From sequence record NC_055709.1: DNA of 64,000 nucleotides. The stretch is one strand, 5' to 3'. The translations under genes and the position numbers were made by a program. Source of the DNA: Escherichia phage phiE142. The first letter of the stretch is position 1, and each line of letters opens with the position of its first letter. The notes under the pieces were generated by a model that worked only from the letters and a program-made list of their open reading frames with translations, made no database searches and was not told the DNA's origin. Of the stretch, positions 39,184 through 63,988 are shown piece by piece.

Positions 39184-39477
39184 ATGTCTGGATTAAGTTA
39201 CGACCAGTGCGTTACAACAGGTCATGAAGCATGGCCTCCTACAGTAATTAATGCTTCTCAATCTAAAGTATTCACCGGCGGTATTCCTGTTCTTGTAGCA
39301 GGAGACCAAATAACACCTCATACAGAAATTAAAAAACCGTACGAGACTCATGGCGGTGTTACTGAACCTCGTACATCTAAAGTATATGTCACCGGTAAAA
39401 AGGCCGTTCAAATGGCTGACCCAATTTCATGCGGGGACACTGTTTCTCAGGCCTCGTCAAAAGTCTTTATAAAATAG
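39184..39477 (+). CDS. 5.4: PAAR-repeat spike tip protein gp5.4
   Basis: 97 aa from MSGLSYDQ; PAAR-like spike-tip assignment by size and position. Confidence 0.7.
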
Positions 39478-39485
39478 GAATTAAA

Positions 39486-41456
39486 ATGGCAAACACTCCT
39501 GTAAATTATCAGTTAGTCAGAACGGCGAATGCTATTCCCGAAATTTTTATCGGGGGCACATTTGCCGAAATTAAAACAAATATAATCGAATGGCTCAATG
39601 GACAGAACGAATTTCTTGATTATGATTTTGAAGGTTCACGTTTAAACGTATTGTGTGACCTTTTAGCATATAATACTCTTTATATCCAACAGTTCAGTAA
39701 TAGTGCAGTGTATGAAAGCTTTATGCGTACTGCTAACTTGCGCAGTTCCGTTGTACAAGCGGCTCAGGATAATGGATATCTGCCTGCATCTAAATCAGCA
39801 GCACAAACAGAAATTATGCTCACATGTACGGATGCATTAAATAGAAACTATATCACTATTCCGCGTGGTACTCGTTTCCTGGCGTATGCTAAAGGTACTT
39901 CTGTAAATCCATATAACTTTGTTTCCACCGAAGACGTCATTGTAGTTAAAGACAAAAATAATCAATATTTCCCACGTCTTAGGTTAGCTCAGGGACGTAT
40001 TGTTCGTACTGAATTAACATTTGATAAATTAAAACCTATCATTATTCGTGATAAGAACATTGACCGTAATTTGGTTAAATTGTATGTTGACGGAGCAGAA
40101 TGGATTAACTGGACTCGCAAATCGATGGTTCATGCTGGTTCTACTTCAACCATTTATTATATGCGAGAAACTGTTGACGGGAACACTGAATTTTATTTTG
40201 GTGAAGGTGAAATCTCTATTAACACGTCAGAAGGTGCTTTAACATCTAACTACATTGGCGGCCTTAAACCTGTCCAGGGTTCTAAAATCGTAATTGAATA
40301 TATTTCTACTAATGGTGCTGAAGCAAATGGTGCAGTAGGATTCTCTTATGCTGATACATTAGCTAATATCACAGTTATTGGAATTAATGAAAACCCAAGT
40401 AATAACCCTGACTTCGTTGGTGCTGATGGCGGTGGCGACCCTGAAGATATTGAACGTATCCGTGAATTAGGTACAATTAAACGCGAAACTCAACAACGAT
40501 GTGTGACTGCGACCGATTACGACACATTCGTCTCTGAACGATTTGGTTCTATTATTCAAGCGGTTCAGACATTTACGGATTCATCTAAGCCTGGGTACGC
40601 ATTTATTGCTGCTAAACCTAAGTCTGGGCTATATTTGACTTCCGTCCAACGAGACGATATTAAAAATTATCTTAATGAGTATAACTTAGGGACGATAACT
40701 CCTGTTGTTATTTCTCCTGATTATTTGTTTATTAAAATGAATATTCGCGTTACGTATGCATTGAACAAATTACAGGAATCTGAACAATGGTTAGAAGGCC
40801 AAATTATTAATAAAATCGACCGGTATTATATTGAAGACGTGGAAATTTTTAACTCGTCATTCGCAAAATCTAAAATGCTAACGTATGTAGATGACGCAGA
40901 TATTTCTATCATTGGTTCGTCTGCGACTATTCAAATGGTTCGCGAGGTACAGAACTTCTACAAAACACCTGAAACAGGTATTAAATACAATAACCAGATT
41001 AAAGATAGAACATTAGAATCTAACGTGTTTTCATTTGATAGTTTACGCGTTGACCCTGAAACGGAAGCTACTATTAAATACGACGTTCGCATTGTAGGTT
41101 CAGATAGAAATGACCGTGGCATTGGACAAGTTATTATTGGCCCGTTTGCAGATGGCGACGTTATAGAAAATGCTTATATTCAACCATATACTGGTGACGA
41201 TTTTAATAAACTTCATGTTACGGACGGAAGAAACAAATATTACTCTATAGGTGAAGTAAATTATCCGGCTGATTCAATTTATTGGAATATAGCTAAAATT
41301 GATTTAACTTCTGATAGGTTTGAAGTTCAAACTATTGAACTCTATTCAGACCCAGCTGATGATGTTATCTTTACTAAAGACGGGTCATTAATTGTATTTG
41401 AAAATGACTTACGTCCGCAATATTTAACCATAGATTTGGAGCCTATTTCACAATGA
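39486..41456 (+). CDS. 6: baseplate wedge subunit gp6
   Basis: MANTPVNYQLVRTANAIPEIF...; start at the Met matching the T4 N-terminus. Confidence 0.9.
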   Translation: MANTPVNYQLVRTANAIPEIFIGGTFAEIKTNIIEWLNGQNEFLDYDFEGSRLNVLCDLLAYNTLYIQQFSNSAVYESFMRTANLRSSVVQAAQDNGYLPASKSAAQTEIMLTCTDALNRNYITIPRGTRFLAYAKGTSVNPYNFVSTEDVIVVKDKNNQYFPRLRLAQGRIVRTELTFDKLKPIIIRDKNIDRNLVKLYVDGAEWINWTRKSMVHAGSTSTIYYMRETVDGNTEFYFGEGEISINTSEGALTSNYIGGLKPVQGSKIVIEYISTNGAEANGAVGFSYADTLANITVIGINENPSNNPDFVGADGGGDPEDIERIRELGTIKRETQQRCVTATDYDTFVSERFGSIIQAVQTFTDSSKPGYAFIAAKPKSGLYLTSVQRDDIKNYLNEYNLGTITPVVISPDYLFIKMNIRVTYALNKLQESEQWLEGQIINKIDRYYIEDVEIFNSSFAKSKMLTYVDDADISIIGSSATIQMVREVQNFYKTPETGIKYNNQIKDRTLESNVFSFDSLRVDPETEATIKYDVRIVGSDRNDRGIGQVIIGPFADGDVIENAYIQPYTGDDFNKLHVTDGRNKYYSIGEVNYPADSIYWNIAKIDLTSDRFEVQTIELYSDPADDVIFTKDGSLIVFENDLRPQYLTIDLEPISQ

Positions 41457-44400
41457 CAGTAAAAGCGCCAGCAGTCACGAGTCTCAGATTATCTAAATTG
41501 TCCGCAAACCAAGTTCAAATTCGCTGGGATGAGGTTGGCGCTAATTTCTACTATTTTGTGGAAATAGCTGAGACCAAAACAGCTAACGGGGAAGCAATTC
41601 CCCGTAATAGCTATAGATGGACTAATTTAGGATATACCGCTGATAACAATTTCTTTGAGTCTGGTTTAAATTCATTAACAACATATATGATGCGTGTGGC
41701 TACAGCAGCGGAGGGATTTGAGCAGTCTGATTGGAGATACACTGAAGAGTTTGAAACATTTGAAATAAACGCTTACACATTCCAACATATGATTGAAATG
41801 CAATTAGCTAACGAGTTTATTTCTGAAAAATTTACAAAAAATAATACAAACTACGTTGATTTTAATAATGACACGATCATGGCAGCACTGATGAGCGAGT
41901 CGTTCCAATTCAGTCCTGCATACACCGATGTGTCATCGATTAGAAATTTTATAATTGGTGAAAATCAGTATCATGAAATCCAGGGGCATATCCAGGATGT
42001 ATGTAAAGATATAAATCGAGTATATCTAATGGAATCTGAAGGAATTCTTTACCTTTTTGAAAGATTCCAACCTATTGTAAAAGTGTCTAATGATAAAGGC
42101 CAAACATGGAAAGCGGTTAAATTGCTTAATGACCGTGTAGGATATCCACTTTCACGAACCGTATATTACCAATCAGAATATACGACGTATTTGCTCGGCT
42201 ATGATAAGATTTTTTACGGGCGTAAATCATCCGATATTCGTTGGTCTGCTGATGATGTTCGTTTCAGTTCACAAGACGTAACATTTGCTAAAATCTGGGA
42301 TCAATTAAATTTAGGTTTTGATGTAGAGATTTTCGGTACATACGCGTCATTACCAGGAAACGTATCACGTATTGCAGAAGCTATTACTTGTAATGATGAC
42401 TATGTTTATATTGCGGCCAGAGATAAAGTTCGCTTCGTTAAAACCAGTAACGCTCCTATTGATTCAGATCCATTATCTCCGACCTATTCCGAACGGTTGT
42501 TTGAACCTGAGACGTTTACAATAACAGGCAACCCTAAAGCAGTTTGTTATAAAATGGATTCTGTTGGTGGAAGAATATTCGCTCTTATTATTGGTGAAGT
42601 TGAAAACGTTAATGACGACCCAAGAACAAAGCCTATTTTGGATTCCGTTGATAAAGGTGTATACGTTTTAGACCATGACGCTGGAACATTTAAAAGGATA
42701 TTTGGTAATACCGAAGAAGAACGCCGTCGTATAGAACCGGCTTTCACCAATATGTCTACTGATGGTGTTGAGCTTTATATCTCTTCTAGTAATTTTAAAT
42801 TTTTAGAATCTGATATTGTTGACGACCCAGAAACGCAATCTAAGTACGGACTTTTGGGAGCAGTTAAGTATGAATATCCTAGAGAATGGCTCGCAGATAA
42901 ACATTACCATATGATGATTTTCGCATCAAACGAAGAAAGTAATTGGGAAACTTTTTCACCAACTCCTATGCAGTATTATGCAGAACCTTTCTTTAGTTAT
43001 TCTAGAAAATCAGGCACACGTTCTTGGATTAATAACTCTGATAGAGCGGTAGTGATTTATTCTGATTTGCTTTACACAAAGGTAGTGGAAAGCTACCCTA
43101 GCACTTCACCTGATCGTAAAGTTCACGAATACTGGAATGACGGCGATTGTAAGATTGTTATGCCGAATATAGAATTCACTGGATTTAAAAAATACGCATC
43201 TGGTATGTTGTTTTATAAATCATCAGGTGAAATAATTTCATATTACGATTTTAGTTATCGTGTTAGAAATAACGTTTCTATAATTTGGAAGCCCACTAAC
43301 GTATTTTTGACCGCCTCATTACAAAACCAAGAAAAAGAAACTTCTTGGGTTCCTGTTGAAGAGACAGGTCTAGCTGACCCGGATTTACGCCCATTACTCA
43401 CTACAATGATGCCAGAGTCTTATCTGTTGGATAATACAAACTTTGAAGCATTTTGTGAAGCGTATATTCAATATCTTTCTGATGGATATGGGACTCATTA
43501 TAATAACTTATTGAATTTGATTAAAAATAAATACCCACGAGAAGAACACGCATGGGAATATCTTTGGTCTGAAATTTATAAACGGAACATTTATTTGAAT
43601 GCTGAGAAACGTGATTTAGTTTCTAGGTTCTTTGAGTCCAGAAGTTATGATTTTTATTCTACTAAAGGAACTGAAGCATCGTATAAGTTTTTGTTTAAAG
43701 TTCTTTATAACGAAGACGTTGAAGTAGAAATCGAGTCATCTGCTGGAACAGAGTATGATATCATAATTCAATCTGATTCTATAAGTGAAGATTTGGTTGG
43801 ACAAACTATATACACCGCTACAGGTAGATGTAATGTTACATATTTAGAAAGAAGCTATTCTAAAGGTAAATTACAATGGACTGTGACTATTCATAACCTT
43901 TTAGGTAGGCTTTTAGTCGGTCAAGAAGTAAAAGCCGAAAGACTAGCAGATTTTGAAGGTGAAATAGTTCGCGGTATTAAAGGTAAAGAACTTGCCCAAA
44001 ACACTATCGATTATTTTAATCGTGGTAGAGCTTATTACGTCATGAAAATAAAGTCAAATCTTCCATCCTCTCGTTGGAAATCTGACGTACTACGTTTTGT
44101 ACATCCGGTAGGATTTGGATTTATTGCAATAACCTTATTAACAATGTTTATTAATACAGGATTAACGCTTAAACATGTTGAAACTATTATTAATAAATAT
44201 AAAAATTATAAGTGGGATTCCGGACTGCCTACGGAATATGCAGACCGCGTCGCTCGTTTAGACCCTCAAGGTAATGTAGAATTCAATCCTGTTACAGGTG
44301 AAGTAATTTATGATGCTGGTCCTTATGCCGGTATCGAATACCCTTTACCTGCAAATTATAATGAAGAAAATGATAACTCTATTTTCCAAGGACAATTACC

Positions 44401-44551
44401 GTCCGAACGACGCAAGCCGATGAGCCCATTATTTGATGCATCAGGTACAACGTTCTCTAGATTTAGAGAGCTTGTTAATGAAAGATTGTTAGATAACGTG
44501 GGAAATCCTAGAGACCCGATTAATCCACCACAGGTTAAATTAGATGAATGA
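41453..44551 (+). CDS. 7: baseplate wedge initiator gp7
   Basis: 1032 aa, same length as T4 gp7; overlapping start/stop with gene 6. Confidence 0.9.
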   Translation: MTVKAPAVTSLRLSKLSANQVQIRWDEVGANFYYFVEIAETKTANGEAIPRNSYRWTNLGYTADNNFFESGLNSLTTYMMRVATAAEGFEQSDWRYTEEFETFEINAYTFQHMIEMQLANEFISEKFTKNNTNYVDFNNDTIMAALMSESFQFSPAYTDVSSIRNFIIGENQYHEIQGHIQDVCKDINRVYLMESEGILYLFERFQPIVKVSNDKGQTWKAVKLLNDRVGYPLSRTVYYQSEYTTYLLGYDKIFYGRKSSDIRWSADDVRFSSQDVTFAKIWDQLNLGFDVEIFGTYASLPGNVSRIAEAITCNDDYVYIAARDKVRFVKTSNAPIDSDPLSPTYSERLFEPETFTITGNPKAVCYKMDSVGGRIFALIIGEVENVNDDPRTKPILDSVDKGVYVLDHDAGTFKRIFGNTEEERRRIEPAFTNMSTDGVELYISSSNFKFLESDIVDDPETQSKYGLLGAVKYEYPREWLADKHYHMMIFASNEESNWETFSPTPMQYYAEPFFSYSRKSGTRSWINNSDRAVVIYSDLLYTKVVESYPSTSPDRKVHEYWNDGDCKIVMPNIEFTGFKKYASGMLFYKSSGEIISYYDFSYRVRNNVSIIWKPTNVFLTASLQNQEKETSWVPVEETGLADPDLRPLLTTMMPESYLLDNTNFEAFCEAYIQYLSDGYGTHYNNLLNLIKNKYPREEHAWEYLWSEIYKRNIYLNAEKRDLVSRFFESRSYDFYSTKGTEASYKFLFKVLYNEDVEVEIESSAGTEYDIIIQSDSISEDLVGQTIYTATGRCNVTYLERSYSKGKLQWTVTIHNLLGRLLVGQEVKAERLADFEGEIVRGIKGKELAQNTIDYFNRGRAYYVMKIKSNLPSSRWKSDVLRFVHPVGFGFIAITLLTMFINTGLTLKHVETIINKYKNYKWDSGLPTEYADRVARLDPQGNVEFNPVTGEVIYDAGPYAGIEYPLPANYNEENDNSIFQGQLPSERRKPMSPLFDASGTTFSRFRELVNERLLDNVGNPRDPINPPQVKLDE

Positions 44552-45548
44552 TTCAAGTGTTGTCTATCGTGCGATAGTTACTTCAAAATTTAGAACTGAA
44601 AAAATGTTGAATTTCTACAATTCAATAGGTGATGGTGATAATAAAAACACCATCTTTATAACGTTTGGTCGGTCTGAACCATGGGCTGCTAATGAAAATG
44701 AGGTGGGCTTCGCCCCACCGTATCCAACAGACTCGGTTTTAGGTGTAACAGATATGTGGACTAACATGATGGGTTTAGTTAAAGTTATCCCATCTATGTT
44801 AGACTCTGTTATTCCTAGACGTGACTGGGGAGATATTCGTTATCCGGACCCTTATACATTCAAAATAAATGATATAGTCGTATGTAATACAGCCCCATAT
44901 AATGCCACTGAAGTCGGAGCTGGATGGTTAGTATACCGTTGCGTAGATGTTCCTGATGTTGGGATGTGTTCTATTGAGTCTCTCGACAACAAAGAAGAAT
45001 GTCTTAAATTAGGCGGTAAATGGACTCCATCTGTTAGGTCTTTAACCCCTCCTGAAGGCCGTGGAGACGCTGAAGGGATTATCGAAGTTGGTGATGGATA
45101 TATATGGGAGTATCTTTATGAGATTCCACCCGATGTGTCTATAAACCGATGTACTAATGAATATATAGTCGTTCCATGGCCGGAAGAAGTTAAAGAAGAC
45201 CCTGCTCGTTGGGGATATGAAAACAATCTAACCTGGCAACAAGATGATTTTGGCCTTGTGTATAGAGTTAAAGCAAACATAATTCGTTTTAAAGCCTATT
45301 TAGACTCAGTTTATTTCCCTAATGCAGCACTGCCTGGTAATAAAGGATTTAGACAAATTTCTATTATCACAAACCCGTTGGAAGCTAAACTCCGTCCTAA
45401 TGACCCTAATATAAAAGCTGAAAAGGATTATTATGACCCCAGAGATTTACAGCGTCATTCCGGTGAAATGATTTATATGGAAAACCGTCCACCTATTATT
45501 ATGGCAATGGACCAAACCGAAGAGATCAATATTTTGTTTATGTTCTAA
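44544..45548 (+). CDS. 8: baseplate wedge subunit gp8
   Basis: 334 aa as in T4. Confidence 0.9.
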   Translation: MNDSSVVYRAIVTSKFRTEKMLNFYNSIGDGDNKNTIFITFGRSEPWAANENEVGFAPPYPTDSVLGVTDMWTNMMGLVKVIPSMLDSVIPRRDWGDIRYPDPYTFKINDIVVCNTAPYNATEVGAGWLVYRCVDVPDVGMCSIESLDNKEECLKLGGKWTPSVRSLTPPEGRGDAEGIIEVGDGYIWEYLYEIPPDVSINRCTNEYIVVPWPEEVKEDPARWGYENNLTWQQDDFGLVYRVKANIIRFKAYLDSVYFPNAALPGNKGFRQISIITNPLEAKLRPNDPNIKAEKDYYDPRDLQRHSGEMIYMENRPPIIMAMDQTEEINILFMF

Positions 45549-45552
45549 TTTA

Positions 45553-45573
45553 GGGAGACTTCGGTCTCCCTTT
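45553..45573 (+). terminator. stem-loop after gene 8
   Basis: gggagac-ttcg-gtctccc followed by TTT. Confidence 0.45.
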
Positions 45574-45577
45574 CGTG

Positions 45578-45585
45578 TATAAATA
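45578..45585 (+). promoter_or_regulatory. late promoter TATAAATA for gene 9
   Basis: 26 nt upstream of the gene 9 ATG. Confidence 0.55.
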
Positions 45586-45610
45586 GTATAAACTATTAAG
45601 GATTAGCCAC

Positions 45611-46474
45611 ATGTATATTCAAACTCCAAAACAATTGATTGACGTTGGCGAAATTGGTACCGCTTCTACAGGCGATATCCTTTTTGACGGCGGTGTTAAA
45701 ATAAACAATGATATAAATGCTATTTACAATGCGTTTGGCGACCAACGAAAAATGGCAACTGCTAATGGGACAGGACCAAATGGACAAATAATCCATGCTA
45801 CTGGATACTACCAAAAAGGAGGTCCTACTGATTATTTCACCCCTGTTCCAGTAGGAAGTAGACACGACATAGATGCTTCTACTGGTGGTGTTATTGTTAC
45901 TGTTGCTAGAGGTGAACTCGGTGATTCCGTGGAATTTATAAATTCAAACGGGTCAATTTCGGTAAACAACCCATTAAGTATCCAAGCATTAGATTCTATT
46001 AAAGGTGTTGCAGGTAATTTAGTTATAACTACACCTTATACTAAAGTTACTCTTCGTTGTATTTCTTCTGGTACAGGCGGTTCAATATGGGATTATTCTA
46101 CAGAAAGTATGTTTAGTCATACCGAAATTCCTGTAGACGGGACATGGAATATTATTTCAGACTATATCAATATTCCTCTATTTTATAAAACTGAATATAA
46201 TGCTGCTAAACTTTTGGTTACATGCCAATCTGCCAACGGCAGAAAAATTAAATCATGCGAAATAAATATTCTAATAGATACAATTAATTCAAGAGTTATT
46301 TCAACCGAATACGCAGTGATGCGCATTGGTAATGATAACGAAGAAGATGAAATTGCGAATATTAGTTTTTCGATAATTAACAATTTTGCCACTATGACAG
46401 TTTCTTCACATATAAATGGTCTTCGAGTGGCAGCTAAAGTTATTTCAACTCAGAAAATTAGGGTCGCTCAATAA
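45611..46474 (+). CDS. 9: baseplate wedge / long tail-fibre socket gp9
   Basis: 287 aa in conserved position. Confidence 0.85.
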   Translation: MYIQTPKQLIDVGEIGTASTGDILFDGGVKINNDINAIYNAFGDQRKMATANGTGPNGQIIHATGYYQKGGPTDYFTPVPVGSRHDIDASTGGVIVTVARGELGDSVEFINSNGSISVNNPLSIQALDSIKGVAGNLVITTPYTKVTLRCISSGTGGSIWDYSTESMFSHTEIPVDGTWNIISDYINIPLFYKTEYNAAKLLVTCQSANGRKIKSCEINILIDTINSRVISTEYAVMRIGNDNEEDEIANISFSIINNFATMTVSSHINGLRVAAKVISTQKIRVAQ

Positions 46475-48288
46475 TGAAACAAAATATTAAAATTGGGAAC
46501 GTCGTTGATGACGGACAAGGCGATTACCTTCGTCGTGGTGGTGCAAAAATTAATGAAAACTTTGATGAGTTGTATTATGAATTAGGCGATGGCGAAGTTC
46601 CATATTCCGCTGGTGCCTGGAAAACATACCATTCTTCAGATGGACTTAATTTAGCTGCTGAATGGGGTAAATCATACGCAATTGATACTTCAACAGGGCG
46701 TGTTTCTATAAATTTACCTAAAGGAACAGTGGAAGATTATAATAAAGTAATTAGAGCCCGTGATGTATTCGCCACGTGGAATATTAACCCTGTAACATTA
46801 ATTGCTGCCAGCGGTGATACTATTAAAGGTTCTTCCAGCCCAGTAGAAATCAATGTGCAGTTTTCAGACTTAGAATTAGTTTACTGTTCTCCTGGGCGCT
46901 GGGAATACGTTAAAAATAAACAAATAGACAAAATTACTAGTTCTGATATTAGTAGTGTAGCTCGTAAAGAATTTTTAGTCGAAGTTCAAGGTCAAACTGA
47001 TTTTCTTGATGTATTTGGGCCTGTTTCTTATAATGTGAATAATATCCGTGTAAAACATCGTGGTAACGAATTATACTACGGTGATGCGTTCAGTGACAAT
47101 AGTGACTTTGGTTCACCAGGAGCTAATCCTGGTGAAATCGTTGCATTAGATGGTAAAAACATCCGTCTAAGACAACCGTGTAATATCGGCGACACCGTAC
47201 AAATTGAAACCTTTTTGGATGGGATTACACAATTACGCAGTTCTTATTCTCGCCGCCAAATACGTATTTTAGATTCGAAATTAACAACCCGTCCTTCCTT
47301 AGAAGGAAGTGTATATGTCGCTGATTTGTCAACTTTGAAATCTATTCCTTTTTCCGCATTTGGAGTTAATCCTTCAGAACCGGTCAATACCAATTCTTTA
47401 GAAGTTCGTTTTAACGGTATTCTTCAAGAATTAGCTGGTACTGTTGGTTTACCTATGTTCAGATGTGAAGGAGCTGACGCAGAAACTTCTACTGAGTGTT
47501 CAGCTTTAGGTGGGACTTGGGTTACATCTAACACAGATTATTCTATTGAATATGATGATAACGATGCAACTATCGCACGTGCTTTAGTCTTTGACCGTAA
47601 GTTTGAAGACCAAGACATTATTGATATTACATGGTTTAATAACGATTTAGGCACTTTATTAAGTATCGATGACATTTTAGATACAACTGATGAAAGGTAT
47701 GTCGCACAAGGTGCAACCGTAAATGTGACAGGCGATGTGGCTTTGACCGATTTCAATAATATCGGATGGCCTAATGTAGAATCTGTTCCTGCATATAGCA
47801 GGGAATTCTCGTCTATTGCAAATATTTTTAACACCATTTACCCTGTCGGTACTATTTACGAAAATGCAGTGAACCCTAATAACCCAGCCACGTATTTAGG
47901 ATTTGGCTCTTGGAAATTATGGGGGCAAGGAAAAGTATTAGTTGGATGGAACGACGATATTAGCGATCCTAATTTTGCATTAAATAATAACGACCTTGAT
48001 TCTAGCGGGAATCCTACACATACCGCCGGTGGAACAGTCGGAACAACGTCTAACACACTAACTAATTCTGATTTACCTCCTACTCAAACTGACGAGAAAG
48101 TTCTTATTTCCGATGAGAACGGTACAATTATTATTGGTGGTTGTCAATACGACCCTGATGCAGAAGGTCCTATATACACCAAATACCGTGAAGGCCACGC
48201 CACAACGAATAGTACACACATACCGCCTCAAGCCGTAAATAATATTCAACCGTCAGTTACCGTATACCGTTGGGTAAGGATTGCATAA
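46474..48288 (+). CDS. 10: baseplate wedge subunit gp10
   Basis: 604 aa (T4 about 602). Confidence 0.9.
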
Positions 48289-48947
48289 TGACCATACTTA
48301 ATACTAAAGCGGGAGTAATATCCCGCGAAGCAGATTTTTTAGGATTTAGAAAAAATCCTACTCAAATTGATATTTTAAACAACCAAGGCGTAGGTTCTGT
48401 AACTATTTCTCAATTGGCAAAAGGATTCTACGACGATAACGTAGAATCTGCAATAAACGATGTTCATAATATTGCTAGAGCAGATGTAGGAACAGTTACA
48501 ATTAACACCTCAGGTGTATCTCCTGAAGGAACTTCACAGGTAGATTATTGGTCCTTTAGTGGAAGTGTAACTGACCCTAGTTTGCCCGATGGAAGCCCTG
48601 TTATTGTAAAAGTTTACGGGCTTCCTGTTAATGCTACTGTAGGTATGACAGCCGACGAATTTGTTGTACAATTACGTACTACTCTCCGGAATGCGATTTC
48701 CGACCAAATGGCTATTGCAGAGTATAAAGATGACCCTACTGTTGGGACTAAATTACAAATAACATATTTAGATAACCAAAGACACGTACTCCCAACGTAT
48801 TCCTCTTATGGTATCACGGTTTCTCAAGAAATAGTGTCTCAGGCTAAGTCCGGGTACGGCACTTGGAATTTACTAGGTGCGCAAACCATTACTCTTGACA
48901 ACCATATTTCACCTACAACCTTTTATTATTTTGTGAGAACCGCATGA
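48288..48947 (+). CDS. 11: baseplate wedge subunit gp11
   Basis: 219 aa from the TAATG overlap start; [11 protein letters not shown]...[12 protein letters not shown] matches T4 gp11. Confidence 0.9.
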
Positions 48948-50494: not shown

Positions 50495-50503
50495 GGGTAA
50501 AAA

Positions 50504-51978: not shown

Positions 51979-52876
51979 ATGTCAGGTTATAATGCACAAA
52001 ACCCTAAAGAATTAAAGGATGTAATATTACGTCGTTTAGGCGCTCCTATTGTAAATGTTGAATTAACTACAGACCAAATTTATGATTGTATTTCCAGAGC
52101 ATTAGAACTTTATGGCGAATATCATTTTGATGGATTGAATAAAGGTTTCCATGTATTTTTTGTTGACGACGAAGAAAAATACCGTCACGGCGTATTTGAT
52201 ATGCGTGGTTCTAATGTATTTGCTGTAACAAGAATTATAAGAACAAACGTTGGCTCTATTACTTCAATGGATGGTAACGCAACTTATCCATGGTTCACTG
52301 ATTTCCTTTTAGGAATGGCAGGCGTTTCTGGTGGTATGGGTAGTAATTGTGGTAAATTCTACGGTCCGAACGCTTTTGGTGCCGACCTCGGGTATTATTC
52401 TCAATTAGTATCTTATATGGGTATGCTTCAAGATATGATTGCTCCTCTTCCAGATTTTTGGTTTAACTCTGCAAACGAGCAATTAAAAGTAATGGGTAAC
52501 TTTAGACAGAAAGATGTTATTATCGTTGAATCGTATGTTCGCTCTTATATTGAGACACATAAGATGGTAGGAAATACAGTAGGTTATGGACAGGTCGGTC
52601 CTCGTGATTCATGGTCTATTTCTGAGCGGTATGACAACCCAGACCATAATTTAGTCGGACGTCGAGTTGGTGAAGATCCTGCAACTAAACAAGGCGCATA
52701 TAACAACCGCTGGGTTAAAGATTATGCAACTGCATTAGCTAAAGAGCTTAATGGACAAATTCTTGCTAAACATCAAGGTATGATGTTACCAGGCGGTGTC
52801 ACTGTTGATGGTGTTCGATTAATTGAAGAAGCCCGTTTAGAGAAAGAAGCTTTACGAGAAGAGTTATATTTACTGG
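51979..52876 (+). CDS. 13: neck protein gp13, 3' end lost in N-gap
   Basis: ORF in conserved position after wac; runs into the N-run at 52877 roughly 10 codons short of the T4 length. Confidence 0.75.
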
Positions 52877-52924
52877 NNNNNNNNNNNNNNNNTNNNGTAN
52901 NTNNNNNNGGNNANNNNNNNNNNN
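52877..52924. other. N-masked junction
   Basis: 48 positions, mostly N; the 8 called bases all match gp5.4 sequence at 39378-39398 under the +13515 offset. Confidence 0.9.
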
Positions 52925-52992
52925 AAATGGCTGACCCAATTTCATGCGGGGACACTGTTTCTCAGGCCTCGTCAAAAGTCTTTATAAAATAG
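52925..52992 (+). other. 3' fragment of a second gp5.4 copy
   Basis: identical to 39410-39477; no start codon of its own. Confidence 0.6.
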
Positions 52993-53000
52993 GAATTAAA

Positions 53001-54971: not shown

Positions 54972-57900
54972 CAGTAAAAGCGCCAGCAGTCACGAGTCTC
55001 AGATTATCTAAATTGTCCGCAAACCAAGTTCAAATTCGCTGGGATGAGGTTGGCGCTAATTTCTACTATTTTGTGGAAATAGCTGAGACCAAAACAGCTA
55101 ACGGGGAAGCAATTCCCCGTAATAGCTATAGATGGACTAATTTAGGATATACCGCTGATAACAATTTCTTTGAGTCTGGTTTAAATTCATTAACAACATA
55201 TATGATGCGTGTGGCTACAGCAGCGGAGGGATTTGAGCAGTCTGATTGGAGATACACTGAAGAGTTTGAAACATTTGAAATAAACGCTTACACATTCCAA
55301 CATATGATTGAAATGCAATTAGCTAACGAGTTTATTTCTGAAAAATTTACAAAAAATAATACAAACTACGTTGATTTTAATAATGACACGATCATGGCAG
55401 CACTGATGAGCGAGTCGTTCCAATTCAGTCCTGCATACACCGATGTGTCATCGATTAGAAATTTTATAATTGGTGAAAATCAGTATCATGAAATCCAGGG
55501 GCATATCCAGGATGTATGTAAAGATATAAATCGAGTATATCTAATGGAATCTGAAGGAATTCTTTACCTTTTTGAAAGATTCCAACCTATTGTAAAAGTG
55601 TCTAATGATAAAGGCCAAACATGGAAAGCGGTTAAATTGCTTAATGACCGTGTAGGATATCCACTTTCACGAACCGTATATTACCAATCAGAATATACGA
55701 CGTATTTGCTCGGCTATGATAAGATTTTTTACGGGCGTAAATCATCCGATATTCGTTGGTCTGCTGATGATGTTCGTTTCAGTTCACAAGACGTAACATT
55801 TGCTAAAATCTGGGATCAATTAAATTTAGGTTTTGATGTAGAGATTTTCGGTACATACGCGTCATTACCAGGAAACGTATCACGTATTGCAGAAGCTATT
55901 ACTTGTAATGATGACTATGTTTATATTGCGGCCAGAGATAAAGTTCGCTTCGTTAAAACCAGTAACGCTCCTATTGATTCAGATCCATTATCTCCGACCT
56001 ATTCCGAACGGTTGTTTGAACCTGAGACGTTTACAATAACAGGCAACCCTAAAGCAGTTTGTTATAAAATGGATTCTGTTGGTGGAAGAATATTCGCTCT
56101 TATTATTGGTGAAGTTGAAAACGTTAATGACGACCCAAGAACAAAGCCTATTTTGGATTCCGTTGATAAAGGTGTATACGTTTTAGACCATGACGCTGGA
56201 ACATTTAAAAGGATATTTGGTAATACCGAAGAAGAACGCCGTCGTATAGAACCGGCTTTCACCAATATGTCTACTGATGGTGTTGAGCTTTATATCTCTT
56301 CTAGTAATTTTAAATTTTTAGAATCTGATATTGTTGACGACCCAGAAACGCAATCTAAGTACGGACTTTTGGGAGCAGTTAAGTATGAATATCCTAGAGA
56401 ATGGCTCGCAGATAAACATTACCATATGATGATTTTCGCATCAAACGAAGAAAGTAATTGGGAAACTTTTTCACCAACTCCTATGCAGTATTATGCAGAA
56501 CCTTTCTTTAGTTATTCTAGAAAATCAGGCACACGTTCTTGGATTAATAACTCTGATAGAGCGGTAGTGATTTATTCTGATTTGCTTTACACAAAGGTAG
56601 TGGAAAGCTACCCTAGCACTTCACCTGATCGTAAAGTTCACGAATACTGGAATGACGGCGATTGTAAGATTGTTATGCCGAATATAGAATTCACTGGATT
56701 TAAAAAATACGCATCTGGTATGTTGTTTTATAAATCATCAGGTGAAATAATTTCATATTACGATTTTAGTTATCGTGTTAGAAATAACGTTTCTATAATT
56801 TGGAAGCCCACTAACGTATTTTTGACCGCCTCATTACAAAACCAAGAAAAAGAAACTTCTTGGGTTCCTGTTGAAGAGACAGGTCTAGCTGACCCGGATT
56901 TACGCCCATTACTCACTACAATGATGCCAGAGTCTTATCTGTTGGATAATACAAACTTTGAAGCATTTTGTGAAGCGTATATTCAATATCTTTCTGATGG
57001 ATATGGGACTCATTATAATAACTTATTGAATTTGATTAAAAATAAATACCCACGAGAAGAACACGCATGGGAATATCTTTGGTCTGAAATTTATAAACGG
57101 AACATTTATTTGAATGCTGAGAAACGTGATTTAGTTTCTAGGTTCTTTGAGTCCAGAAGTTATGATTTTTATTCTACTAAAGGAACTGAAGCATCGTATA
57201 AGTTTTTGTTTAAAGTTCTTTATAACGAAGACGTTGAAGTAGAAATCGAGTCATCTGCTGGAACAGAGTATGATATCATAATTCAATCTGATTCTATAAG
57301 TGAAGATTTGGTTGGACAAACTATATACACCGCTACAGGTAGATGTAATGTTACATATTTAGAAAGAAGCTATTCTAAAGGTAAATTACAATGGACTGTG
57401 ACTATTCATAACCTTTTAGGTAGGCTTTTAGTCGGTCAAGAAGTAAAAGCCGAAAGACTAGCAGATTTTGAAGGTGAAATAGTTCGCGGTATTAAAGGTA
57501 AAGAACTTGCCCAAAACACTATCGATTATTTTAATCGTGGTAGAGCTTATTACGTCATGAAAATAAAGTCAAATCTTCCATCCTCTCGTTGGAAATCTGA
57601 CGTACTACGTTTTGTACATCCGGTAGGATTTGGATTTATTGCAATAACCTTATTAACAATGTTTATTAATACAGGATTAACGCTTAAACATGTTGAAACT
57701 ATTATTAATAAATATAAAAATTATAAGTGGGATTCCGGACTGCCTACGGAATATGCAGACCGCGTCGCTCGTTTAGACCCTCAAGGTAATGTAGAATTCA
57801 ATCCTGTTACAGGTGAAGTAATTTATGATGCTGGTCCTTATGCCGGTATCGAATACCCTTTACCTGCAAATTATAATGAAGAAAATGATAACTCTATTTT

Positions 57901-58066
57901 CCAAGGACAATTACCGTCCGAACGACGCAAGCCGATGAGCCCATTATTTGATGCATCAGGTACAACGTTCTCTAGATTTAGAGAGCTTGTTAATGAAAGA
58001 TTGTTAGATAACGTGGGAAATCCTAGAGACCCGATTAATCCACCACAGGTTAAATTAGATGAATGA
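54968..58066 (+). CDS. 7: gp7, second copy
   Basis: protein identical to 41453..44551. Confidence 0.6.
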   Translation: MTVKAPAVTSLRLSKLSANQVQIRWDEVGANFYYFVEIAETKTANGEAIPRNSYRWTNLGYTADNNFFESGLNSLTTYMMRVATAAEGFEQSDWRYTEEFETFEINAYTFQHMIEMQLANEFISEKFTKNNTNYVDFNNDTIMAALMSESFQFSPAYTDVSSIRNFIIGENQYHEIQGHIQDVCKDINRVYLMESEGILYLFERFQPIVKVSNDKGQTWKAVKLLNDRVGYPLSRTVYYQSEYTTYLLGYDKIFYGRKSSDIRWSADDVRFSSQDVTFAKIWDQLNLGFDVEIFGTYASLPGNVSRIAEAITCNDDYVYIAARDKVRFVKTSNAPIDSDPLSPTYSERLFEPETFTITGNPKAVCYKMDSVGGRIFALIIGEVENVNDDPRTKPILDSVDKGVYVLDHDAGTFKRIFGNTEEERRRIEPAFTNMSTDGVELYISSSNFKFLESDIVDDPETQSKYGLLGAVKYEYPREWLADKHYHMMIFASNEESNWETFSPTPMQYYAEPFFSYSRKSGTRSWINNSDRAVVIYSDLLYTKVVESYPSTSPDRKVHEYWNDGDCKIVMPNIEFTGFKKYASGMLFYKSSGEIISYYDFSYRVRNNVSIIWKPTNVFLTASLQNQEKETSWVPVEETGLADPDLRPLLTTMMPESYLLDNTNFEAFCEAYIQYLSDGYGTHYNNLLNLIKNKYPREEHAWEYLWSEIYKRNIYLNAEKRDLVSRFFESRSYDFYSTKGTEASYKFLFKVLYNEDVEVEIESSAGTEYDIIIQSDSISEDLVGQTIYTATGRCNVTYLERSYSKGKLQWTVTIHNLLGRLLVGQEVKAERLADFEGEIVRGIKGKELAQNTIDYFNRGRAYYVMKIKSNLPSSRWKSDVLRFVHPVGFGFIAITLLTMFINTGLTLKHVETIINKYKNYKWDSGLPTEYADRVARLDPQGNVEFNPVTGEVIYDAGPYAGIEYPLPANYNEENDNSIFQGQLPSERRKPMSPLFDASGTTFSRFRELVNERLLDNVGNPRDPINPPQVKLDE

Positions 58067-59063
58067 TTCAAGTGTTGTCTATCGTGCGATAGTTACTTCA
58101 AAATTTAGAACTGAAAAAATGTTGAATTTCTACAATTCAATAGGTGATGGTGATAATAAAAACACCATCTTTATAACGTTTGGTCGGTCTGAACCATGGG
58201 CTGCTAATGAAAATGAGGTGGGCTTCGCCCCACCGTATCCAACAGACTCGGTTTTAGGTGTAACAGATATGTGGACTAACATGATGGGTTTAGTTAAAGT
58301 TATCCCATCTATGTTAGACTCTGTTATTCCTAGACGTGACTGGGGAGATATTCGTTATCCGGACCCTTATACATTCAAAATAAATGATATAGTCGTATGT
58401 AATACAGCCCCATATAATGCCACTGAAGTCGGAGCTGGATGGTTAGTATACCGTTGCGTAGATGTTCCTGATGTTGGGATGTGTTCTATTGAGTCTCTCG
58501 ACAACAAAGAAGAATGTCTTAAATTAGGCGGTAAATGGACTCCATCTGTTAGGTCTTTAACCCCTCCTGAAGGCCGTGGAGACGCTGAAGGGATTATCGA
58601 AGTTGGTGATGGATATATATGGGAGTATCTTTATGAGATTCCACCCGATGTGTCTATAAACCGATGTACTAATGAATATATAGTCGTTCCATGGCCGGAA
58701 GAAGTTAAAGAAGACCCTGCTCGTTGGGGATATGAAAACAATCTAACCTGGCAACAAGATGATTTTGGCCTTGTGTATAGAGTTAAAGCAAACATAATTC
58801 GTTTTAAAGCCTATTTAGACTCAGTTTATTTCCCTAATGCAGCACTGCCTGGTAATAAAGGATTTAGACAAATTTCTATTATCACAAACCCGTTGGAAGC
58901 TAAACTCCGTCCTAATGACCCTAATATAAAAGCTGAAAAGGATTATTATGACCCCAGAGATTTACAGCGTCATTCCGGTGAAATGATTTATATGGAAAAC
59001 CGTCCACCTATTATTATGGCAATGGACCAAACCGAAGAGATCAATATTTTGTTTATGTTCTAA
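58059..59063 (+). CDS. 8: gp8, second copy
   Basis: identical to the first copy. Confidence 0.6.
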   Translation: MNDSSVVYRAIVTSKFRTEKMLNFYNSIGDGDNKNTIFITFGRSEPWAANENEVGFAPPYPTDSVLGVTDMWTNMMGLVKVIPSMLDSVIPRRDWGDIRYPDPYTFKINDIVVCNTAPYNATEVGAGWLVYRCVDVPDVGMCSIESLDNKEECLKLGGKWTPSVRSLTPPEGRGDAEGIIEVGDGYIWEYLYEIPPDVSINRCTNEYIVVPWPEEVKEDPARWGYENNLTWQQDDFGLVYRVKANIIRFKAYLDSVYFPNAALPGNKGFRQISIITNPLEAKLRPNDPNIKAEKDYYDPRDLQRHSGEMIYMENRPPIIMAMDQTEEINILFMF

Positions 59064-59125
59064 TTTAGGGAGACTTCGGTCTCCCTTTCGTGTATAAATA
59101 GTATAAACTATTAAGGATTAGCCAC

Positions 59126-59989
59126 ATGTATATTCAAACTCCAAAACAATTGATTGACGTTGGCGAAATTGGTACCGCTTCTACAGGCGATATCCTTTTT
59201 GACGGCGGTGTTAAAATAAACAATGATATAAATGCTATTTACAATGCGTTTGGCGACCAACGAAAAATGGCAACTGCTAATGGGACAGGACCAAATGGAC
59301 AAATAATCCATGCTACTGGATACTACCAAAAAGGAGGTCCTACTGATTATTTCACCCCTGTTCCAGTAGGAAGTAGACACGACATAGATGCTTCTACTGG
59401 TGGTGTTATTGTTACTGTTGCTAGAGGTGAACTCGGTGATTCCGTGGAATTTATAAATTCAAACGGGTCAATTTCGGTAAACAACCCATTAAGTATCCAA
59501 GCATTAGATTCTATTAAAGGTGTTGCAGGTAATTTAGTTATAACTACACCTTATACTAAAGTTACTCTTCGTTGTATTTCTTCTGGTACAGGCGGTTCAA
59601 TATGGGATTATTCTACAGAAAGTATGTTTAGTCATACCGAAATTCCTGTAGACGGGACATGGAATATTATTTCAGACTATATCAATATTCCTCTATTTTA
59701 TAAAACTGAATATAATGCTGCTAAACTTTTGGTTACATGCCAATCTGCCAACGGCAGAAAAATTAAATCATGCGAAATAAATATTCTAATAGATACAATT
59801 AATTCAAGAGTTATTTCAACCGAATACGCAGTGATGCGCATTGGTAATGATAACGAAGAAGATGAAATTGCGAATATTAGTTTTTCGATAATTAACAATT
59901 TTGCCACTATGACAGTTTCTTCACATATAAATGGTCTTCGAGTGGCAGCTAAAGTTATTTCAACTCAGAAAATTAGGGTCGCTCAATAA
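59126..59989 (+). CDS. 9: gp9, second copy
   Basis: identical to the first copy. Confidence 0.6.
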   Translation: MYIQTPKQLIDVGEIGTASTGDILFDGGVKINNDINAIYNAFGDQRKMATANGTGPNGQIIHATGYYQKGGPTDYFTPVPVGSRHDIDASTGGVIVTVARGELGDSVEFINSNGSISVNNPLSIQALDSIKGVAGNLVITTPYTKVTLRCISSGTGGSIWDYSTESMFSHTEIPVDGTWNIISDYINIPLFYKTEYNAAKLLVTCQSANGRKIKSCEINILIDTINSRVISTEYAVMRIGNDNEEDEIANISFSIINNFATMTVSSHINGLRVAAKVISTQKIRVAQ

Positions 59990-61803
59990 TGAAACAAAAT
60001 ATTAAAATTGGGAACGTCGTTGATGACGGACAAGGCGATTACCTTCGTCGTGGTGGTGCAAAAATTAATGAAAACTTTGATGAGTTGTATTATGAATTAG
60101 GCGATGGCGAAGTTCCATATTCCGCTGGTGCCTGGAAAACATACCATTCTTCAGATGGACTTAATTTAGCTGCTGAATGGGGTAAATCATACGCAATTGA
60201 TACTTCAACAGGGCGTGTTTCTATAAATTTACCTAAAGGAACAGTGGAAGATTATAATAAAGTAATTAGAGCCCGTGATGTATTCGCCACGTGGAATATT
60301 AACCCTGTAACATTAATTGCTGCCAGCGGTGATACTATTAAAGGTTCTTCCAGCCCAGTAGAAATCAATGTGCAGTTTTCAGACTTAGAATTAGTTTACT
60401 GTTCTCCTGGGCGCTGGGAATACGTTAAAAATAAACAAATAGACAAAATTACTAGTTCTGATATTAGTAGTGTAGCTCGTAAAGAATTTTTAGTCGAAGT
60501 TCAAGGTCAAACTGATTTTCTTGATGTATTTGGGCCTGTTTCTTATAATGTGAATAATATCCGTGTAAAACATCGTGGTAACGAATTATACTACGGTGAT
60601 GCGTTCAGTGACAATAGTGACTTTGGTTCACCAGGAGCTAATCCTGGTGAAATCGTTGCATTAGATGGTAAAAACATCCGTCTAAGACAACCGTGTAATA
60701 TCGGCGACACCGTACAAATTGAAACCTTTTTGGATGGGATTACACAATTACGCAGTTCTTATTCTCGCCGCCAAATACGTATTTTAGATTCGAAATTAAC
60801 AACCCGTCCTTCCTTAGAAGGAAGTGTATATGTCGCTGATTTGTCAACTTTGAAATCTATTCCTTTTTCCGCATTTGGAGTTAATCCTTCAGAACCGGTC
60901 AATACCAATTCTTTAGAAGTTCGTTTTAACGGTATTCTTCAAGAATTAGCTGGTACTGTTGGTTTACCTATGTTCAGATGTGAAGGAGCTGACGCAGAAA
61001 CTTCTACTGAGTGTTCAGCTTTAGGTGGGACTTGGGTTACATCTAACACAGATTATTCTATTGAATATGATGATAACGATGCAACTATCGCACGTGCTTT
61101 AGTCTTTGACCGTAAGTTTGAAGACCAAGACATTATTGATATTACATGGTTTAATAACGATTTAGGCACTTTATTAAGTATCGATGACATTTTAGATACA
61201 ACTGATGAAAGGTATGTCGCACAAGGTGCAACCGTAAATGTGACAGGCGATGTGGCTTTGACCGATTTCAATAATATCGGATGGCCTAATGTAGAATCTG
61301 TTCCTGCATATAGCAGGGAATTCTCGTCTATTGCAAATATTTTTAACACCATTTACCCTGTCGGTACTATTTACGAAAATGCAGTGAACCCTAATAACCC
61401 AGCCACGTATTTAGGATTTGGCTCTTGGAAATTATGGGGGCAAGGAAAAGTATTAGTTGGATGGAACGACGATATTAGCGATCCTAATTTTGCATTAAAT
61501 AATAACGACCTTGATTCTAGCGGGAATCCTACACATACCGCCGGTGGAACAGTCGGAACAACGTCTAACACACTAACTAATTCTGATTTACCTCCTACTC
61601 AAACTGACGAGAAAGTTCTTATTTCCGATGAGAACGGTACAATTATTATTGGTGGTTGTCAATACGACCCTGATGCAGAAGGTCCTATATACACCAAATA
61701 CCGTGAAGGCCACGCCACAACGAATAGTACACACATACCGCCTCAAGCCGTAAATAATATTCAACCGTCAGTTACCGTATACCGTTGGGTAAGGATTGCA
61801 TAA
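59989..61803 (+). CDS. 10: gp10, second copy
   Basis: identical to the first copy. Confidence 0.6.
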
Positions 61804-62462
61804 TGACCATACTTAATACTAAAGCGGGAGTAATATCCCGCGAAGCAGATTTTTTAGGATTTAGAAAAAATCCTACTCAAATTGATATTTTAAACAACCA
61901 AGGCGTAGGTTCTGTAACTATTTCTCAATTGGCAAAAGGATTCTACGACGATAACGTAGAATCTGCAATAAACGATGTTCATAATATTGCTAGAGCAGAT
62001 GTAGGAACAGTTACAATTAACACCTCAGGTGTATCTCCTGAAGGAACTTCACAGGTAGATTATTGGTCCTTTAGTGGAAGTGTAACTGACCCTAGTTTGC
62101 CCGATGGAAGCCCTGTTATTGTAAAAGTTTACGGGCTTCCTGTTAATGCTACTGTAGGTATGACAGCCGACGAATTTGTTGTACAATTACGTACTACTCT
62201 CCGGAATGCGATTTCCGACCAAATGGCTATTGCAGAGTATAAAGATGACCCTACTGTTGGGACTAAATTACAAATAACATATTTAGATAACCAAAGACAC
62301 GTACTCCCAACGTATTCCTCTTATGGTATCACGGTTTCTCAAGAAATAGTGTCTCAGGCTAAGTCCGGGTACGGCACTTGGAATTTACTAGGTGCGCAAA
62401 CCATTACTCTTGACAACCATATTTCACCTACAACCTTTTATTATTTTGTGAGAACCGCATGA
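61803..62462 (+). CDS. 11: gp11, second copy
   Basis: identical to the first copy. Confidence 0.6.
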
Positions 62463-63988
62463 GTAACAATACATATCAACACGTTTCGAATGAATCGGTA
62501 TATGTTGAATTTGACCCGGTAGGGTCAAATTTTGATAGTTCAATAACCAATGTCCAGGCAGCCTTAGCCTCAATTAGCGCATATGGTGTTAAAGGTGTTC
62601 CGGACGCAAGCGAAGCAGAAAAAGGTGTAATTCAATTAGCGACAGAACAAGAAGTTCTTGATGGATTTAATAGTACTAAAGCCGTTACACCAGCCACATT
62701 AAATGCAAGACTTCAGTATCCGAACGCGTCAGAAACACAATACGGTGTAACTAAATATGCAACACAAGAGGAAGCCATTGCCGGCACTTTAGACACTGTT
62801 TCTATTACTCCACTTAAATTAAACCAAACTATTGATAACACGTTCTCTACTCGTTATTCCACCGAAACAACTAACGGTGTTATTAAAATTGCAACTCAAA
62901 CCGCTGCACTTGCCGGGTCTGATGATACCACGGCAATGACACCGCTTAAAACTCAGCAATTAGCAATAAAATTAATTTCTCAAATAGCTCCTAATAACGA
63001 CCCGGCTTCAGAATCTATTACTGGTGTTGTGCGTTTAGCTACGGTGGCTCAAACACGTCAAGGAACTCTTCGCGAAGGATATGCAATTTCCCCATATACC
63101 TTTATGAATTCTGTTGCAACACAAGAATATAAAGGTGTTATACGTCTAGGAACACAAACGGAAATTAATAGTAATTTAGGAGATGTTGCTGTAACAGGTG
63201 AAACGCTAAATGGTAGAGGAGCTACCGGTTCTATGCGTGGAGTCGTAAAATTAACGACGCAGGCCGGTGTTGCACCCGAAGGCGATAGTTCTGGAGCATT
63301 AGCATGGAACGCAGATGTAATTAATACACGCGGTGGGCAAACTATTAATGGTTCTTTAAATTTAGACCATCTCACGGCAAATGGAATTTGGTCACGTGGT
63401 GGAATGTGGAAAAACGGTGACCAGCCGGTTGCAACAGAGCGATATGCATCTGAACGTGTTCCTGTTGGAACAATTCAAATGTTCGCAGGTGATAGCGCTC
63501 CTCCAGGTTGGGTTTTATGTCATGGCGGGACCGTTTCTGGGAACCAATTTCCAGACTATCGAAATGTGGTTGGAACGAGATTTGGCGGTGATTGGAATAA
63601 TCCTGGAATTCCAGACATGCGCGGTCTTTTTGTTAGAGGAGCTGGTACAGGCAGCCATATTTTAAATAATCGCGGTCAAGATGGCTATGGAAAGGATAGA
63701 TTAGGTGTAGGATGTGACGGTATGCATGTTGGTGGTGTCCAAGCACAGCAAATGTCATATCATAAACACGCTGGTGGATGGGGCGAATATCAACGTCATG
63801 AGGCACCATTCGGAGCATCCGTATATCAAGGTTATTTGGGTACTAGAAAATACGCTGATTGGGATAACGCATCATATTTCACAAATGACGGCTTCGAATT
63901 AGGTGGTCACCGCGACGCAACAGGCACTCTTAACCGTGAAGGACTTATCGGATATGAGACTCGTCCATGGAATAAAGTCCATTACTAA
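62459..63988 (+). CDS. 12: gp12, second copy (7 codons shorter at C-terminus)
   Basis: 509 aa; identical to copy 1 except it lacks 21 nt (ISLNYII); sequence after the stop differs from copy 1. Confidence 0.6.

Follow-up and report, generated by a model that had tools for sequence, protein, structure and literature searches.

The deposited genome of Escherichia phage phiE142 presents the same baseplate gene block twice, and the question raised by this locus is whether the phage carries a duplication or whether the second block was introduced during assembly. The stretch of DNA analysed (the window) comprises the last 64,000 nt of the phiE142 record (KU255730.1, 121,442 bp), an identity established by exact protein matches together with the published ORF table (PMC5154165 Table S2), record coordinates being obtained by adding 57,442 to window coordinates. 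Applied to the window ORFs at 51979-52992 and 62459-63988, this offset yields the limits tabulated for ORF187 (109,421-110,434) and ORF194 (119,901-121,430), so that window position 64000 is the record end at 121,442 and no sequence follows the second copy. That copy (110,335-121,430 in record coordinates) consequently makes up the closing 11.1 kb of what was deposited.

The repeated block

Comparison of window positions 39410-50459 with 52925-63974, at an offset of 13,515, demonstrated identity over 11,050 nt with 0 mismatches, a perfect repeat far beyond what chance could produce. The first-pass annotation had described the segment 39378-50459 as recurring at 52893-63974, with wac and a truncated gene 13 separating two copies that differ only at the far end, and each of these points was upheld: wac (fibritin), present as a single copy, occupies 50504-51946, gene 13 is cut at 52876, and the difference consists of 21 nt lost from the gp12 C-terminus.

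Copy 1 (39378-50459), delimited by its identity to copy 2 and by its ORFs, with gene names taken from the phiC120 annotation, Pfam and ORFs 178-185 of Table S2, lies in its native context; it is on the + strand, as are wac, gene 13 and copy 2. It comprises the 3' part of the gp5.4 (PAAR needle) ORF (39184-39477), followed by gp6 (39486-41456), gp7 (41453-44551), gp8 (44544-45548), gp9 (45611-46474), gp10 (46474-48288), gp11 (48288-48947) and gp12 (48944-50494; 516 aa). Copy 2 (52925-63974; phiE142 ORFs 188-194) starts in a 3' fragment of gp5.4 and continues with gp6 (53001-54971), gp7 (54968-58066), gp8 (58059-59063), gp9 (59126-59989), gp10 (59989-61803), gp11 (61803-62462) and gp12 (62459-63988; 509 aa). 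Within the phiE142 record gp7 and gp10 carry two accession numbers apiece. By an exact-sequence cluster look-up, ALY07999.1/YP_010088661.1 of phiE142, from a 121,442-bp contig, proved identical to the 509-aa gp12 encoded in copy 2. Exact-protein contig look-ups gave no match for this 509-aa gp12 or for gp7, and for the 516-aa gp12 of copy 1 pointed to phiC120 and ESh27 alone.

The junction within gene 13

Comparison of its translation with phiC120 gp13 indicated that gene 13, encoding the neck protein, is authentic through codon 299 (51979-52876), and up to 52876 its DNA is 100% identical to that of phiC120. At that position it is cut, 29 nt ahead of the stop codon and with loss of the terminal DPPAGILVG*. 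The non-ACGT characters of the window are confined to the run that follows (52877-52924), which consists of 40 N and 8 called bases: T at 52893, GTA at 52897-99, T at 52902, GG at 52909-10 and A at 52913. That the called bases of this 48-nt run match gp5.4 had been noted at first pass, and they do indeed equal copy 1 at 39378-39398; they also fit the normal gene 13/14 continuation.

Across 52893-52924 the record proved to be a strict consensus of two sequences, namely the end of gene 13 and start of gene 14 (tttggtaggttaatatggcgacttatgataaa) and the interior of gp5.4 at 39378-39409 (taaagtatatgtcaccggtaaaaaggccgttc): the 8 positions at which these agree are called, the 24 at which they disagree are N, and all 32 of the 32 positions are thereby reproduced. 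When 317,808 candidate 32-mers were considered, just one reproduced the N pattern, and this was the gene 13/14 continuation in the exact register expected; a random 32-mer would do so with a chance of about 1.5e-8 (0.25^8 x 0.75^24). Since called bases mark agreement and N marks disagreement, two different sequences have been overlaid here, one of which is the wild-type 13-to-14 junction, and no single defined novel junction sequence is present. The preceding 16 consecutive N (52877-52892), in register for gene-13 bases, are not accounted for by the two-sequence consensus, as 52882-84 would be CCT in both and yet are N. Read through the ambiguous run, the 1,014-nt ORF annotated as 'neck protein' (ORF187; 51979-52992) is a chimera of gp13 residues 1-299, a series of X residues, and the last 21 residues of gp5.4.

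Like the N runs that mark scaffold joins, this run separates two assembled pieces. By comparison with a scaffold gap, however, which is pure N of estimated length and joins neighbours, 32 of its 48 positions encode the agreement of two unrelated sequences, and the piece that it attaches is a repeat of sequence already in the record. Two other sources for the run were tried. A 15-nt insertion of the phiC120 type (agttatatttactgg) failed to reproduce the pattern, and a microhomology recognised by eye between gene 13 (ttactggacc) and gp5.4 (ttactgaacc), with 9 of 10 positions matching, was discarded as an explanation for the join because it is displaced by 4 nt from the repeat register and predicts called bases where N stand. 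Any equation of the 48-50-nt ambiguous zone with k-1 of the Velvet k-mer is only speculation.

The record end and the nearest relatives

At its far end copy 1 runs from ccatggaata through tatctttaaattatattatta and aagtccattactaa into gggtaaaaaatg, the start of wac. Copy 2 passes from ccatggaata directly to aagtccattactaa and then to tgttctcctgaa, where the window stops. The segment tatctttaaattatattatta (50460-50480), which copy 1 shares with all relatives and copy 2 lacks, amounts to 7 codons specifying gp12 residues ISLNYII. The tip of copy 2, which is also the record end (63975-64000), comprises the last 14 nt of gp12 followed by 12 unrelated bases, in accord with the original observation that this copy leads into sequence other than the start of wac; the second unit thus finishes with the gp12 stop and 12 unmatched nt, and does not run on into wac-13-14. 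Deletion and tail both fall within the last 47 nt. In a gp12 cluster of 90 members, all 14 of the other members listed are 516 aa in length and none has the deletion. The copy-2 tail was absent from IMG/VR in an exact pattern scan, INPHARED blastn matches (word size 11) stopped at the deletion point, and tgttctcctgaa was not present at 0 mismatches in the whole phiC120 genome, matches with 1-2 mismatches having the appearance of chance.

The record is also incomplete. Its 5' end lies inside gene 36, and genes 14-35, about 58 kb, are absent, leaving it with no terminase, sheath, tube, portal or major capsid gene; a length of 121 kb results from this loss. Michniewski et al. (2019) independently described phiE142 as incomplete, about 50 kb short and without major structural and terminase genes. 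Once the ~58.4 kb that phiC120 has in addition is counted, the unique length of 110.3 kb rises to about 169 kb, a size matching that of the relatives, and the phage itself almost certainly has the gene order 12-wac-13-14... in a genome of about that size.

Genes 12, wac and 13 are contiguous in 45 records of the phage collection, of which 0 span the 13'-to-5.4' junction, and that junction was found in no other record of the collection. Segment by segment, the unique sequence of the window (52.9 kb) is 98.1-99.6% identical to Mosigvirus c120, and across the repeated block 31 sites separate phiE142 from phiC120, the nearest phage known. The phiC120 record (KY703222.1/NC_055718.1; 186.6 kb) itself carries a 17,135-nt exact duplicate, the two copies lying at its ends and 169,329 nt apart. 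It shares with phiE142 its laboratory of origin, a Geneious-based assembly of 100-nt Illumina reads, duplication of the identical baseplate-neck block at 100% identity, a duplicate that breaks at the same gene-13 nucleotide (...ttatatttactgg), and unmatched junk bases at the contig tips. It differs in that its copies are one genome length apart in a genome otherwise complete, whereas in phiE142 the extra block stands 13.5 kb downstream, attached through the ambiguous-base overlay, and about 58 kb is absent. The common breakpoint of the two records was examined for an underlying repeat, but neither the agttatatttactgg 15-mer nor the junk tails of phiC120 recurred elsewhere. The phiC120 record additionally holds both variants, gcggg and gcagg, of one gene-13 site.

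Origin of the second block

Taken together, these data make it very probable that the second 5.4-12 block is a redundant contig mis-joined to the record end, and not a duplication. The published pipeline consisted of Velvet inside Geneious R8, supplied with 100-nt reads at about 10,000x coverage, with the BioProject listed as NA (PMC5154165). Under such a pipeline the reads that gave copy 1 would also have yielded a redundant contig, in keeping with the absence of mismatches over 11,050 nt, and an assembly or finishing step would have attached it to the main contig's end. In truth the main contig would have proceeded past gene 13 to gene 14; its final ~48 nt would have been overlaid on the first bases of the unrelated redundant contig, which would start inside gp5.4, and a consensus step would then have placed an ambiguous base at each disagreeing position. 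Loss of the 21 nt and the 12 terminal bases without a match would represent contig-tip error, and the differences at the tip are read as probable mistakes of assembly; the step responsible presumably lay within the Velvet/Geneious pipeline. In their Mauve comparison the phiE142 authors reported a block 'in different order' and placed the main dissimilarity at 110,000-121,000 bp, a region that corresponds to copy 2.

The first-pass preference for a mis-joined assembly over a true tandem duplication is thus supported by the overlay, by the placement of the block at the close of a record that lacks about 58 kb of essential genes and by the lack of the junction in relatives. A 'collapsed' assembly, its alternative suggestion, is at odds with a block that has been redundantly expanded.

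Against this, a real tandem duplication with a 13.5-kb unit, whether carried by the phage itself or by only part of the lysate, would join codon 299 of gene 13 illegitimately to the interior of gp5.4, the N run then reflecting a mixture of reads from wild-type (13->14) molecules and from rearranged ones (13->5.4). T4 offers precedents for tandem duplications of several kb (the rII-region examples of the 1960s-70s), and the head-to-tail layout and identical copies of phiE142 resemble them, as would be expected of a recent event; the fused gene 13/gp5.4 ORF is in frame, and a mixed read population could in principle also yield N wherever the continuations differ. However, genuine duplications of the T4 type have one defined novel junction and a second unit that enters the normal downstream genes, whereas in phiE142 the junction combines the wild-type sequence with another in a consensus, and the second unit lacks wac-13-14, carries a deletion and unmatched bases, and stops 12 nt past gp12 at the end of a record missing a third of the genome. 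The ambiguous zone extends for 48 nt only, which is not a read length, and the junction is seen in no relative. A de Bruijn assembler should, moreover, be unable to output one 11-kb stretch twice from a single graph, and the second copy would therefore have had to enter during a subsequent merging step. Packaging presents a further difficulty: headful packaging of the T4 type provides a terminal redundancy of roughly 3%, which 13.5 kb exceeds, and genuine duplications of this kind shorten terminal redundancy and segregate quickly, so duplicated phiE142 genomes would have to sacrifice terminal redundancy or carry compensating deletions. A real duplication is accordingly regarded as highly improbable, and the same low probability attaches to a lysate sub-population with the gene 13'->gp5.4' junction and a 13.5-kb tandem duplication of the baseplate/short tail fibre/fibritin module.

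A comparably slight likelihood is assigned to a mixture of two close phages, with copy 2 derived from a co-isolated variant having a gp12 shorter by 7 residues and a different downstream neighbour. The 3' end of copy 2 does differ, both in its 21-nt deletion and in the bases that follow, and the occurrence of gcggg and gcagg in phiC120 hints that the read sets of this laboratory may not be clonal. Nevertheless, not one of 11,050 nt differs between the copies, as against the 31 sites that distinguish even phiC120, and the 'mix of two variants' proposed at first pass was therefore not sustained; the deletion and tail occur in no other INPHARED or IMG/VR record, the 516-aa length is uniform among the other gp12 cluster members listed, and the differences are located within the last 47 nt of the contig, where assembly errors concentrate. 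Least probable of all, and already refuted by the layout of the record, is an untrimmed overlap of a circularly permuted genome, in which the same stretch is assembled at both contig ends: circular permutation is a property of T4-type genomes, overlaps of this sort are common in assembler output and phiC120 has exactly this overlap of the same gene block, but only phiC120 carries its copies at both ends, those of phiE142 being 13,515 nt apart in the 3' half of a record whose 5' end in gene 36 is outside the 5.4-12 block, with a repeat period nowhere near genome length.

With the second block read as a mis-joined redundant contig, the locus offers nothing new biologically, and its value is one of data hygiene. 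The artefactual record is present in GenBank, RefSeq and UniProt (ALY/YP accessions, A0A0U4IIL0), and its errors therefore propagate: a chimeric 338-aa 'neck protein' in which the gp5.4 tail follows gp13, a gp12 'variant' of 509 aa, seven structural proteins entered twice and a genome size of 121 kb. Genome scans for 'duplication' should treat both the phiE142 and the 186.6-kb phiC120 records as defective assemblies. The phiE142 record is, furthermore, the sole member of the ICTV genus Carettavirus, placed outside Tevenvirinae, a placement that contrasts with the near-identity of its unique window sequence to Mosigvirus c120.

Repeated block and junction

Comparison of the gp5.4'-gp12 block in its native context (39378-50459, copy 1) with its repeat (52893-63974, copy 2) confirmed the 11-kb repeat around wac and a truncated gene 13 described in the first-pass annotation: positions 39410-50459 equal 52925-63974 (offset 13,515 nt) over 11,050 nt with 0 mismatches, and between the copies come wac and a gene 13 whose genuine sequence reaches codon 299, its final 29 nt being absent. 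The difference reported at the far ends was likewise borne out, copy 1 reading ccatggaata-tatctttaaattatattatta-aagtccattactaa-gggtaaaaaatg, the last element being the wac start, and copy 2 ccatggaata-aagtccattactaa-tgttctcctgaa before the window ends. The 21 nt absent from copy 2 leave a gp12 C-terminus without ISLNYII; neither INPHARED nor IMG/VR contained a record with this deletion plus tail, and in the 90-member gp12 cluster the 14 others among the matches listed are all 516 aa long.

Non-ACGT characters in the window are confined to 52877-52924, a run of 40 N and 8 called bases, all 8 of which equal copy 1 in the repeat register, as expected from the earlier assignment to gp5.4. A query of 50300-53400 matched contiguously up to this run in 45 phage records, with the order 12-wac-13 at the match in all of the 45 among the matches listed, and gene 14 follows gene 13 in the two relatives whose flanks were read, phiC120 and ESh27. 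None of the 632 records matching a junction query (52600-53300) spanned it, the two halves always mapping apart.

In close relatives, gene 13 continues after ...gagttatatttactgg with accctcctgc(g/a)ggtattttggtaggttaatatggcgacttatgataaa, the end of gene 13 plus the start of gene 14. When this stretch was superimposed on the interior of gp5.4 (39362-39409) and N written at each difference, the result, NNNNNCCTNNNNNNNNTNNNGTANNTNNNNNNGGNNANNNNNNNNNNN, reproduced 52893-52924 of the window at 32/32 positions; the 'junction' there is therefore a consensus of two superimposed different sequences, and not a DNA sequence as such. The chance of a random 32-mer fitting the N pattern is 0.25^8 x 0.75^24 (~1.5e-8), and in a scan of 317,808 32-mers (both strands of the window and of 95 kb from phiC120) the gene 13/14 stretch was the only real sequence to reproduce it, and it lies in exactly the register it should have if the first 16 N of the run replace 16 gene-13 bases. 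One overlaid sequence thus shows that the ordinary 13-to-14 junction is present in the assembly data here. Positions 52882-84 are N despite CCT in both overlaid sequences, so an additional cause must lie behind the first 16 N.

Layout of the phiE142 record

The record coordinates of two ORFs in Table S2 of PMC5154165, ORF187 'neck protein' (109,421-110,434; window 51979-52992, +) and ORF194 'short tail fibers' (119,901-121,430; window 62459-63988, +), equal the window coordinates plus 57,442, so the window is the 3'-terminal 64,000 nt of KU255730.1, which ends at window position 64000, and copy 2 forms the record's final 11.1 kb. ORF187, a fusion of gene 13, the N-run and the gp5.4 tail that is in frame by chance, was deposited as a 338-aa protein, and a chimeric neck protein with X residues is now present in protein databases. 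Copy 2 encodes a 509-aa gp12, deposited as ALY07999.1/YP_010088661.1 in the 121,442-bp record, which also holds two accessions each for gp7 (ALY07985.1, ALY07994.1) and gp10 (ALY07988.1, ALY07997.1); gp6-gp12 are entered twice in Table S2, as ORFs 179-185 and 188-194 (PMC5154165).

The record begins inside gene 36 and proceeds through 37, 38, t, the early region, genes 2, 4, 53, 5, 5.4, 6-12, wac and the truncated 13 to the repeated block (Table S2, PMC5154165). Genes 14-35, which include the neck gp14, gp15, terminase, sheath, tube, portal, prohead and major capsid genes, are absent from that table. The missing stretch is ~58.4 kb by phiC120 coordinates and, added to the unique sequence (121,442 - 11,124 = 110,318 nt), gives ~169 kb, matching the size of RB69-like relatives; Michniewski et al. 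described phiE142 as ~50 kb short, without major structural and terminase genes. The phiE142 authors recorded a Mauve block 'in the different order' and placed the main dissimilarity, among 'phage-host recognition' ORFs, at 110,000-121,000 bp (PMC5154165), a region that is copy 2.

Origin of the second copy

The second copy is perfect and sits where the record ends, the junction is a composite of two sequences that includes the wild-type continuation, and the assembly is grossly incomplete. The repeated block is almost certainly no real feature of phage phiE142; the two-sequence junction and terminal position uphold the earlier preference for a mis-joined assembly over tandem duplication. Judged from how de Bruijn assemblers operate, a single graph does not yield an identical 11-kb stretch twice, and the second copy must then have arisen at a merging step. 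A redundant gp5.4'-gp12 contig, its sequence already in the main contig, would have been joined at the main contig's 3' end, probably during finishing and with a forced overlap of ~48 nt; the copy-2 deletion and 12 unmatched terminal bases would be contig-tip errors. The assembly was made with Velvet inside Geneious R8 from 100-nt reads at ~10,000x coverage, yielding 'one final contig' (PMC5154165).

A mix of two phage variants, another option raised in the first-pass annotation, is unlikely because the copies show no difference over 11,050 nt, whereas phiC120 differs there at 31 sites. A minor rearranged sub-population in phiE142 is very improbable, although a mixed read set could likewise yield N at differing positions. 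Real tandem duplication fails on three counts: the junction is undefined, the second unit has no wac-13-14 after it, and 13.5 kb is more than the terminal redundancy (roughly 3%) of headful packaging in T4-type phages. An untrimmed circular overlap is excluded by the 13.5-kb spacing of the copies and the record's 5' end in gene 36.

The sister record, taxonomy and the early region

The closest known case is assembly redundancy in phiC120, a sister phage from the same laboratory and the nearest record to the window in the phage collection (98.2% identity over 1-20000, 99.5% over 32754-52876, 100% only over 47494-52876). In KY703222.1, 30-17164 equals 169359-186493 (17,135 nt, 100% identity; 30-17164 and 32789-49923 in the extracted stretches L001 and L002), a duplicate of genes 2-4-53-5-5.4-6-12-wac-13 at both record ends. 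The duplicate is an overlap left untrimmed, which puts the real genome at ~169.3 kb, as against the published 186,570-bp 'complete genome' (RefSeq NC_055718.1). Like the copy-2 tip of phiE142, both tips carry comparable junk: a 23-nt fold-back of the gene 2 start at the 5' tip and, at the 3' tip, a 15-nt tandem copy, a gene-13 tail with a different allele (gcagg) and 34 unmatched nt. The phiC120 duplicate breaks off at precisely the nucleotide of gene 13 (...agttatatttactgg) at which the phiE142 N-run starts (window 52862-52876; L002 49908-49937), and the breakpoint 15-mer has no further repeat elsewhere in the genome. Possible reasons are that one record served as a guide for the other or that the two read sets are mixed.

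The ICTV genus Carettavirus, 'floating' outside Tevenvirinae, has phiE142 as its only member, and the phiE142 record is without the marker genes for capsid, portal and terminase. Window 1-52876 is collinear with RB69-like phages and 98.1-99.6% identical by segment to Mosigvirus c120 (phiC120); a truncated, partly duplicated record is the probable reason for the separate genus. These findings constitute a warning on two RefSeq records and on the monotypic genus resting on phiE142.

Repeated cassettes of ~60 nt, in several families, lie upstream of minus-strand early genes (8711-8769, 10030-10103, 10310-10383, 12694-12757, 16805-16878, 19526-19593, 23271-23378, 24566-24673, 32052-32159, 32402-32487 and 32796-32862, all minus). 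On that strand they comprise GTTTAC, a 17-nt spacer and TAT(T/A)AT and contain an inverted repeat (TAGGACTA...TAGTCCTA); in this they resemble early promoters of the T4 type with stem-loops, presumably akin to the 'PeSL' cassettes of other T4-type phages. ARAGORN called, on the minus strand, a 94-nt 'tRNA-Stop(tta)' (29852-29945) and the pair tRNA-Arg(tct) and tRNA-Met(cat) (30478-30554 and 30561-30634). Rfam supported only that pair as tRNAs, and two tRNAs were reported for phiE142 (PMC5154165); the 'tRNA-Stop(tta)' probably represents either a stable RNA resembling a tRNA or a spurious prediction.
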